From a virus (Duplodnaviria; Heunggongvirae; Uroviricota; Caudoviricetes), in IMG/VR virus record IMGVR_UViG_644736364_000008: a stretch of 64,000 nt of DNA; one strand, 5' to 3'. Positions within the stretch are counted from its first letter, which is position 1. Every line of letters begins with the position of its first letter. Made by a program: the position numbers and the translations under genes. This document shows positions 12,697-13,349 of the stretch, in pieces. The notes beneath the pieces are model-generated. The model searched no databases, was not told the origin of the DNA, and saw nothing but the letters and a program-made list of their open reading frames with translations.

Positions 12697-12723
12697 GCAA
12701 AAGCCCGCCAGTTCTGGCGGGCC
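12697..12723 (-). terminator. Rho-independent terminator of the SOS-regulated small-gene operon
   Basis: On the minus strand gcccgccag-aact-ctggcgggc followed by TTTT. Confidence 0.5.
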
Positions 12724-12857
12724 TTAGCAAAAACGATCCTCAAACGATCATGCGATCTCATGCGGCATAGACATGCACTACAGAGCTAACGCCTCGCAAG
12801 GGCTCGTTGTTCAACCTTGCTGACGCCAGAAGCAAGTTCAGACGCCAGCAACGTTTC

Positions 12858-13091
12858 TTAATGCAGCCAGCTGTCGTCTTCCCACACCTTCTGCATAATT
12901 TTCATCACTTGTTTTCTTTCTTCGTCCAGTTGCAGTCCGGTTAGTTCCACACCGTTAGAGCTACCTTTGCGAATGCGAATTACCGTTTTGGGATACAGGG
13001 GGCGCAGATTGCGGTAAAGCTCGGATTCAAGGGCGTCCAGGGTAGACTGGCTAATCTTCTGCTCTTTATCGATCATTATTTCAATGCGCAT
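12858..13091 (-). CDS. DinI-like protein (77 aa; start at MRIEIM)
   Basis: MRIEIMIDKEQ...LDALESEL...VIRIRKGS... matches the DinI fold signature; SD gaggtg upstream. Confidence 0.7.
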   Translation of the reverse strand: MRIEIMIDKEQKISQSTLDALESELYRNLRPLYPKTVIRIRKGSSNGVELTGLQLDEERKQVMKIMQKVWEDDSWLH

Positions 13092-13101
13092 AAAAGTCAC
13101 C

Positions 13102-13290
13102 TCAGCTGATGACATCCATTGAGCGGTTGTATTCGTGGGTTCTGATTTTTGCCATGAGTTCATCAGTCAATTCAGAAACCCACTGCAGAGCCAGCCCCTT
13201 CTCTTCATCACTACACTCACTAGCCGCTACAAGCTTAAGAAAAAAATCAATGCGCTGGAGCTTCAAAGACTCCAAAAAATAGTCCTGCAT
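13102..13290 (-). CDS. Small SOS-regulated protein (62 aa), possible Tum-like antirepressor
   Basis: Strong SD aggagg upstream of ATG at 13290; LexA box just upstream; position corresponds to 186 tum. Confidence 0.45.
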   Translation of the reverse strand: MQDYFLESLKLQRIDFFLKLVAASECSDEEKGLALQWVSELTDELMAKIRTHEYNRSMDVIS

Positions 13291-13333
13291 CTTTCCTCCT
13301 ATGACACCACACGCAATGCTGTATGCATAACCA

Positions 13334-13349
13334 CTGTTTATATTTACAG
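13334..13349. promoter_or_regulatory. LexA (SOS) box CTGT-N8-ACAG overlapping the promoter of the small-gene operon
   Basis: ctgtttatatttacag is an exact CTGT-N8-ACAG with AT-rich spacer; -35/-10-like hexamers overlap on the minus strand. Confidence 0.6.

Follow-up and report, generated by a model that had tools for sequence, protein, structure and literature searches.

We conclude that the window studied here (the whole stretch of DNA analysed, 64,000 nucleotides of IMG/VR record IMGVR_UViG_644736364_000008) holds the SOS operon of a Fels-2/186-type (Peduoviridae) E. coli prophage in its split, tumA-tumB form, in which a LexA-repressed pair of genes would encode a 62-aa protein, TumA (ORF1), that inactivates the immunity repressor CI, and a 77-aa DinI-like protein, TumB (ORF2). 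We assign this reading a probability of about 0.88. A first-pass annotation had seen in the operon the likely link between the SOS response and prophage induction, and that proposal gains support from the homologies of both proteins, from the 186-type CI encoded in the window, and from the tum and lexA(Ind-) genetics of the DuoHS prophage of E. coli HS. SOS control of the operon itself is read from the sequence, and its function would parallel that of the related DuoHS prophage, in which dependence on tum and LexA has been shown. The same annotation described the 186 tum function as split into two small genes. The split is real but not peculiar to this locus, as PsP3 tumA/tumB and the account of Lemire 2011 attest; the arrangement is already known, widespread, and genetically tested in a near-identical prophage.

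Operon anatomy and the LexA box

The elements of the operon all lie on the minus strand. At its upstream end, a putative -35 hexamer, TTTACA (13369-13374), read from the sequence and kept in the window, E. coli HS, and Fels-2, is separated by 17 nt from a putative -10 hexamer, TACTGT (13346-13351), which forms the first six bases of the LexA (SOS) box TACTGTAAATATAAACAGTG (13332-13351). The 186 promoter p95 is similar, being annotated as TTCACA, 18 nt, and TACTGT, and in 186 too the LexA box overlaps the -10 hexamer. A scan for consensus matches called no promoter here because the -10 hexamer, a poor match to consensus, is the left arm of the LexA box. The assignment of a putative p95-like promoter ahead of tumA therefore rests on analogy with 186 p95. 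The earlier statement that the box overlaps a promoter stands insofar as the left arm would serve as the -10 hexamer, as in p95, but no strong consensus promoter accompanies it. Moreover, the range then given for the operon (12697-13349) stops just short of the putative -35 hexamer.

The box was originally recognized as an exact CTGT-N8-ACAG, and this sequence is indeed present on the minus strand. Taken alone, the bare 16-mer CTGTTTATATTTACAG (13334-13349) is weak evidence for LexA control: two such sequences occur in the window against 0.71 expected, and at least two were found in 17 of 100 shuffles. The second copy (25098-25113), which has no ORF start nearby, was taken as a chance occurrence. 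These frequencies would fit a chance palindrome in an operon outside SOS regulation, an explanation to which we attach almost no weight. The full 20-mer agrees with the consensus TACTG(TA)5CAGTA in 17 of 20 positions; no other site in the 64-kb window has three or fewer mismatches, and none appeared in 100 shuffles. The box also recurs at a fixed distance from the gene in 78 of 80 related loci, has equivalents in the other two Tum types described below, and shares bases with the -10 hexamer, like its counterpart in 186 p95. Finally, a lexA(Ind-) background blocks induction of DuoHS (PMC12055606), whose box 20-mer is identical.

The tumA gene (13102-13290; 62 aa, defined from the ORF list and the sequence) begins 41 nt from the LexA box. 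A Shine-Dalgarno sequence, AGGAGG (13295-13300), stands 4 nt before the ATG at 13290, in agreement with the earlier description of a 62-aa protein with a strong ribosome-binding site. A gene caller's version of ORF1, extended to 96 aa from an ATG at 13392, was rejected because its start would precede the promoter and operator; the 62-aa form is the one used by RefSeq, in Fels-2, and in the DuoHS study. After 10 intergenic nt follows tumB (12858-13091; 77 aa), identified by its Pfam DinI match, with a Shine-Dalgarno-like GAGGTG (13098-13103) that overlaps the tumA stop codon. The 10-nt spacing suggests translational coupling of the two genes, which we consider probable.

The downstream end is less tidy than the clean terminator first reported. 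An intrinsic terminator, supported by sequence and RNA folding, is present at approximately 12698-12725, with the stem GCCCGCCA/UGGCGGGC, a GAAC loop, and a following UUUU, but it lies about 130 nt past the tumB stop codon, and a second strong hairpin without a U-tract (12813-12855, by RNA folding) intervenes just after that codon. A terminator scan missed the hairpin at 12698-12725 because just four U residues follow the stem. An Rfam scan of positions 11000-14000 returned nothing in the 3' untranslated region, its only hit being a sub-threshold IS009 match inside the PD-T7-1 gene discussed below. The intervening hairpin falls within a segment of 83 nt (12777-12859) for which HS and Fels-2 have no equivalent. 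In place of this segment, both carry a gene of about 225 to 243 aa that is absent from the window: in DuoHS, one of about 225 aa that follows the DinI-like gene and precedes the terminator, and in Fels-2, STM2726 (243 aa), after the DinI gene. STM2726 was also considered as a homologue of 186 orf97, whose product has the same length (243 aa), and was rejected, as it has no detectable similarity to 186 Orf97. The 148 nt flanking the terminator are 96% identical to the operon end in HS and Fels-2.

Homology of TumA and TumB to the two halves of 186 Tum

The DinI-like nature of the 77-aa protein, proposed in the first-pass annotation, is well borne out. ORF2 matches the Pfam DinI family (PF06183) with an E value of 6.6e-23 and a score of 81.3 bits against a cut-off of 24.2, and its residues 14 to 76 span profile positions 1 to 63 of 63. 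It aligns with residues 71 to 145 of 186 Tum, within the C-terminal half (75 residues, 41% identical; E=3e-24), with positions 71 to 148 of phrog_189, and with E. coli DinI (PDB 1GHH; E=2.7e-6), so that the expected similarity to both Tum and DinI is found. It is 100% identical to WP_001217575.1 of E. coli HS. Against the NCBIfam equivalog for chromosomal DinI (NF007893), the score is 42.7 bits, below the cut-off of 111, and by this sequence criterion ORF2 is therefore a phage DinI-like paralogue and not an orthologue of host dinI.

For ORF1 the expected similarity to Tum proved harder to detect, and it emerged in profile searches and not in pairwise alignment. BLASTP gave no alignment of ORF1 to full-length 186 Tum, Pfam and NCBIfam searches with ORF1 returned nothing meaningful, PADLOC returned nothing, and a sequence search of the PDB had no match even at an E value of 10. 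These negative results would fit a replacement of the antirepressor half by an unrelated small protein with another function, as would the label "levan regulatory" given to relatives of ORF1 in a single Klebsiella phage record and in a single UniRef name. That name, however, has no domain support, and profile links run both ways among ORF1, the PsP3 TumA family, and the N-terminal half of Tum. ORF1 matches phrog_698 (E=3.6e-38), which residues 1 to 70 of Tum also reach (E=6.7e-6); phrog_8554 is matched by both ORF1 (2.4e-8) and Tum residues 1 to 70 (3.3e-12); and phrog_1993, the family of PsP3 TumA (E=2.7e-32), is matched by Tum residues 1 to 70 (2e-23) and by ORF1 (E=0.0022). A Cys-x7-Ala-Leu motif (C-x7-AL) is in register at the same position in ORF1, PsP3 TumA, and 186 Tum; all three Tum types have the same genomic position, LexA box, and DinI partner; and loss of the DuoHS gene, whose product is identical to ORF1 at 61 of 62 residues, abolishes SOS induction. 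We thus regard an unrelated origin of ORF1 as highly improbable. Instead, ORF1 appears to be homologous to the N-terminal, antirepressor half of Tum, at a remote level reflected in profile E values of 1e-3 to 1e-8, and its product is presumed to be a CI antirepressor.

The predicted structure of TumA is simple. The AlphaFold2 model is a two-helix hairpin (helices at residues 2 to 23 and 28 to 61; pLDDT, 89), in which the conserved Cys is predicted to sit in the interhelix loop. A Foldseek search of the model against the PDB recovered only generic helical hairpins, none with an E value of 0.001 or lower, and gave no functional hint. By residue count the protein is acidic, with 12 Asp or Glu against 7 Lys or Arg.

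Related operons and their distribution

In 186, as in the window, tum follows gene A directly, is paired with a 186-type CI, and encodes an antirepressor half followed by a DinI-like half. The map position named in the first-pass annotation is therefore the correct one, as the operon of the window lies directly after A in the manner of p95-tum. The 186 system differs in that both halves form one 146-aa polypeptide with internal starts, in that the N-terminal half is similar to ORF1 at the profile level only, and in that the operon also holds orf97. One internal start annotated in the 186 record, Tum95.5, opens the DinI-like half (product of 76 aa by its coordinates), and the two halves are therefore functionally separable even when fused. 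The record further states that Tum "inhibits CI DNA binding." Tum is reported to bind its repressor (PMC3121763), sequestration of CI by Tum has been described in 186 (PMC7708051), and Tum has been said to look like a fusion of an antirepressor and DinI (Lemire 2011, PMC3121763). According to that article, which cites Bunny 2002, tum is split by a stop codon in Fels-2 and PSP3, and the upstream half is the antirepressor.

Phage PsP3 shares with the window the two-gene architecture, the position, and the LexA box, and its TumB is a close homologue of ORF2 (near identity by eye). Its record describes tumA with the words "similar to 5' end 186 tum; UV induction of prophage," whereas the entry for tumB reads "similar to dinI and 3' end of 186 tum." In contrast to the window, TumA of PsP3 has 60 aa and is of another sequence type (phrog_1993), which ORF1 reaches only at the E value of 0.0022 given above; the box lies 19 to 22 nt from the start codon rather than 41 nt, and the CI is longer (286 aa), with an extra N-terminal HTH-like repeat. 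Fels-2 is much closer: its TumA, STM2728, is identical to ORF1 at 61 of 62 residues, a DinI family protein is encoded by STM2726.1, the order A-tumA-dinI is the same, and the tum-dinI DNA is 96.9% identical over aligned pieces that make up 87% of the query.

The closest genetic evidence comes from DuoHS of E. coli HS, which has its operon at the same place after A. Its tum (ECHS_RS04495) encodes a protein that differs from ORF1 at one of 62 residues, the product of its DinI-like gene (ECHS_RS04500) is 100% identical to ORF2, and the promoter and box region has scattered substitutions only, with the box 20-mer unchanged. DuoHS is no longer inducible by mitomycin C once ECHS_RS04495 has been deleted in frame, nor is it in a lexA(Ind-) background (PMC12055606); the readout in that work, the Phollow study, was the loss of mitomycin-C-induced lysis and of virion foci (PMC12055606).

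Such a deletion could in principle mislead if the DinI-like protein, or the pair together, were the real inducer and the 62-aa protein an accessory. The two genes are always adjacent and probably coupled, and an upstream deletion could lower downstream expression. However, the DuoHS deletion is in-frame, and the sequences of the deletion-junction primers NHR24 and NHR28, which by eye match the window around the start and stop codons of ORF1, indicate that the tumB ribosome-binding site was kept. Furthermore, PMC3121763 assigns antirepressor activity to the upstream PSP3 gene, citing a personal communication, and DinI homologues are dispensable for Gifsy induction (PMC3121763). It is very unlikely, in our judgment, that TumB is the inducer, and we retain TumA in that role.

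The Gifsy prophages of Salmonella offer a more distant parallel in their dinI-gfoA/gftA operons, which are LexA-repressed and encode, beside a DinI homologue, a small antirepressor by which a non-cleavable repressor is inactivated (PMC3121763). They differ in their reversed order, with dinI first, and in belonging to lambdoid phages; the likeness is one of architecture, and we claim no similarity between GfoA or GftA and ORF1. Non-polar deletions of dinI in the Gifsy prophages had no significant effect on induction (PMC3121763), and a role of TumB in tuning the SOS response via RecA, an argument from analogy, is for this reason the weakest step of the mechanism set out below and must be called weakly supported.

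The three Tum types are all common in viral contigs. In IMG/VR, the number of stretches recovered by pattern scans was at least 593 for the ORF1 type, 214 for that of PsP3 TumA, and 309 for the fused form of 186, so among the sampled viral contigs a split tum is more frequent than a fused one. For each type, the best approximately 80 loci were examined for ORF length and for a box in the 150 nt upstream. Read from the tum start, the ORF had 62 aa in all 80 loci of the ORF1/Fels-2 type, 60 aa in 74 of 79 of the PsP3 TumA type, and 146 aa in 76 of 79 of the fused 186 type, and a LexA-type box was present in 78 of 80, 79 of 79, and 79 of 79 loci, respectively (236/238 across the three types). The distance from box to start is characteristic within each type (41 nt for the ORF1 type), and a DinI-like ORF lies 10 nt downstream of tumA in 79 of the 80 ORF1-type loci. 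Among complete E. coli genomes, at least 80% of an 851-nt region was found in 635 of 5,426 and some part of it in 1,280; nine of the E. coli genomes listed match it perfectly over all 851 nt. Relatives of ORF1 are also recorded from Salmonella, from Klebsiella phages, and from other Enterobacterales.

State of the prophage and CI as the presumed target of TumA

The window is part of an E. coli chromosome, and positions 3600 to 22450 are 100% identical to strain MS7163 over 18.85 kb. The early region has the layout of 186, with int, cI, a gene at the apl position, cII, fil, and, further on, a DNA adenine methylase gene and A (13444-15884, minus strand). The operon lies between A and the cos/portal (Q) end, a placement shared with 186, PsP3, Fels-2, and HS. 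Downstream of the terminator, a 469-aa gene matches the defence gene PD-T7-1 (E=1.3e-196), at the gpA-gpQ hotspot known from Rousset 2022 and Vassallo 2022; the MS7163 locus, which is identical, has the portal gene (Q) beyond PD-T7-1.

Gene A differs from the intact A of HS in carrying a 26-bp tandem duplication (13809-13867) that causes a frameshift, leaving a 695-aa product and a detached 118-aa ORF. RefSeq labels the identical gene in MS7163 "frameshifted," and the C-terminal part that is lost is conserved with 186 A up to residue 742 of the HS protein. Productive induction of this prophage is uncertain because of this frameshift, and derepression here may lead to no productive lytic cycle. 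The operon could then be intact in a defective prophage, firing without productive induction and being either vestigial or active in trans on further Fels-2-type prophages of the same cell. The second alternative is conceivable in that an identical TumA occurs with many CI types (see below). Nevertheless, inactivity of the truncated A is an assumption, all other genes inspected in the early region are intact, and the operon, with its perfect identity in nine of the genomes listed, has not decayed. We consider this account rather unlikely; it concerns the downstream consequence, and the identity of the operon as an SOS-controlled tumA-tumB pair is unchanged by it.

The presumed target of TumA is the product of cI (18932-19564, plus strand), a 186-type immunity repressor of 210 aa with the Pfam domains Phage_CI_repr (residues 14 to 78) and Phage_CI_C (residues 106 to 204); the Pfam scan found no S24 peptidase domain in it. 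This CI aligns with that of PsP3 and, at 32% identity, with that of 186. The identity is 60% with the CI of Fels-2 and 43% with that of HS, the latter splitting into 67% for the N-terminal and 31% for the C-terminal domain; at this gene both prophages thus differ from the window, and the distance from the CI of DuoHS, the prophage whose tum was tested, counts against our reading.

We propose the following sequence of events. In an undamaged cell, LexA would occupy the 20-bp box over the -10 hexamer and keep the operon off. DNA damage would activate RecA and bring about self-cleavage of LexA, whereupon the operon would be transcribed. TumA would then bind the non-cleavable 186-type CI and block its binding to the operators, and inactivation of CI would derepress the early lytic promoter. 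TumB most likely binds RecA filaments and modulates how strong or how long-lasting the SOS signal is; it would not itself be an antirepressor. We infer the physical binding of TumA to the CI of the window, the action of TumB on RecA, and the contact of TumA with the N-terminal domain of CI that is considered next.

A by-product of the analysis concerns the relationship between TumA type and the domains of CI. CI sequences were compared across the best 80 of at least 593 IMG/VR loci, and each of these 80 encodes a TumA 100% identical to ORF1. A CI homologue was found in 70 of the 80, amounting to 41 distinct sequences and at least 17 clusters at 80% identity. Among cluster representatives, the HTH N-terminal domain (residues 8 to 76 of the window CI) has a mean pairwise identity of about 0.64 to 0.70, with 13 invariant positions within residues 41 to 73; for the linker and the C-terminal domain of the same representatives, the values are 0.08 and 0.34, respectively. 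When the three Tum types are set side by side (63 representatives), the N-terminal domain has within-type identities of 0.70, 0.82, and 0.64 and between-type identities of 0.38 to 0.45; for the C-terminal domain, the value of 0.34 within the ORF1 type is barely above the 0.26 to 0.29 between types. No CI sequence is common to two Tum types.

A tentative explanation, to which we give appreciably less than even odds, is that the invariant TumA serves many immunity types by docking on the HTH N-terminal domain of CI and not on the variable oligomerization domain. If so, it might act as a near-universal trans-inducer among co-resident Fels-2-type prophages, including replication-defective copies. 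The pattern is a correlation, which shared descent or shared operator specificity could also produce, and a literature search for the CI domain bound by Tum yielded nothing usable.

The 62-aa gene is a "hypothetical protein" in PGAP and in most source records, and phrog_698 is listed under "unknown function" in PHROGs. Recognition of tumA lets one predict which P2/186-like prophages are SOS inducible. With the split arrangement already known, we see the main residual value of this analysis in mending these annotations and in pointing to the N-terminal domain of CI as the likely target of TumA: the type of TumA tracks the DNA-binding domain of CI, which offers a testable lead on the surface where the two proteins interact and on cross-induction among prophages that share a cell.

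LexA-like sites outside the main operator

Beside the main LexA box of the tum operon, and overlapping it by a few bases, lies a degenerate second LexA-like site (window 13317-13336, matching at ~13/20 positions). This site aligns with the LexA box position of the related phages 186 and PsP3. As read by eye from the alignment, the prophages of E. coli HS and Salmonella (Fels-2) retain an intact right arm of this site, ATACAGTAT. It may be a vestige of an operator present in the ancestor, or else a second site of low strength. Another exact CTGT-N8-ACAG occurs in the window at 25098-25113 (CTGTTTATTTACACAG); no ORF start was found near it, and it is probably a chance occurrence.

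Gene content behind the tum operon and beyond int

The DinI-like gene, tumB, is followed by an 83-nt segment (window 12777-12859) for which neither E. coli HS nor Fels-2 has an equivalent; both carry a gene of ~230-243 aa in its place. Folding of the segment yields a strong hairpin (12813-12855) that lacks a U-tract. Fels-2 STM2726 and 186 Orf97 are equal in length (243 aa), yet they share no detectable similarity. Immediately past the terminator of the tum operon comes a 469-aa ORF (11127-12536, minus strand). Its PADLOC match is PD-T7-1, a gene of anti-phage defence (E=1.3e-196), and it occupies the gpA-gpQ interval, a known hotspot for defence genes in P2-like prophages. Because this ORF is placed behind the terminator, it is probably not under SOS control, as judged from position.

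On the int side, int is immediately followed by a 407-aa ORF (20591-21814, plus strand) for which Pfam and PADLOC searches returned no match, and which may be prophage cargo at the int-proximal end. Past these two genes, a 262-aa ORF (22555-23343, plus strand) gives a hit to PADLOC's 'Aga_Helical-REase' model at E=1e-26 and may encode a defence-related nuclease; it may lie either within the prophage or outside it.

A frameshift in replication gene A

The replication gene of the prophage, gene A (13444-15884, minus strand), is frameshifted by a perfect 26-bp tandem duplication (window 13809-13867), with 2.3 copies of the repeat in the window and one copy fewer in E. coli HS. The products are a 695-aa ORF and a separate 118-aa ORF, and the C-terminal part lost through the frameshift is conserved with 186 A. 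RefSeq labels the identical gene in strain MS7163 'frameshifted'. The prophage may be replication-defective.

Repressor partners and naming of the 62-aa protein

Some CI repressors encoded alongside an identical TumA (IMG/VR loci L064, L025, L084, L013, L072, L060, and L055) are ~310 aa long, with two tandem HTH N-terminal-like domains; they resemble the CI of PsP3, which is likewise longer (286 aa). Relatives of TumA are named 'levan regulatory (domain) protein' in a few database records, a name for which we found no domain evidence, and nearly all the remaining records read 'hypothetical'. The literature name of this 62-aa protein, tum/tumA, has not been taken up in databases.
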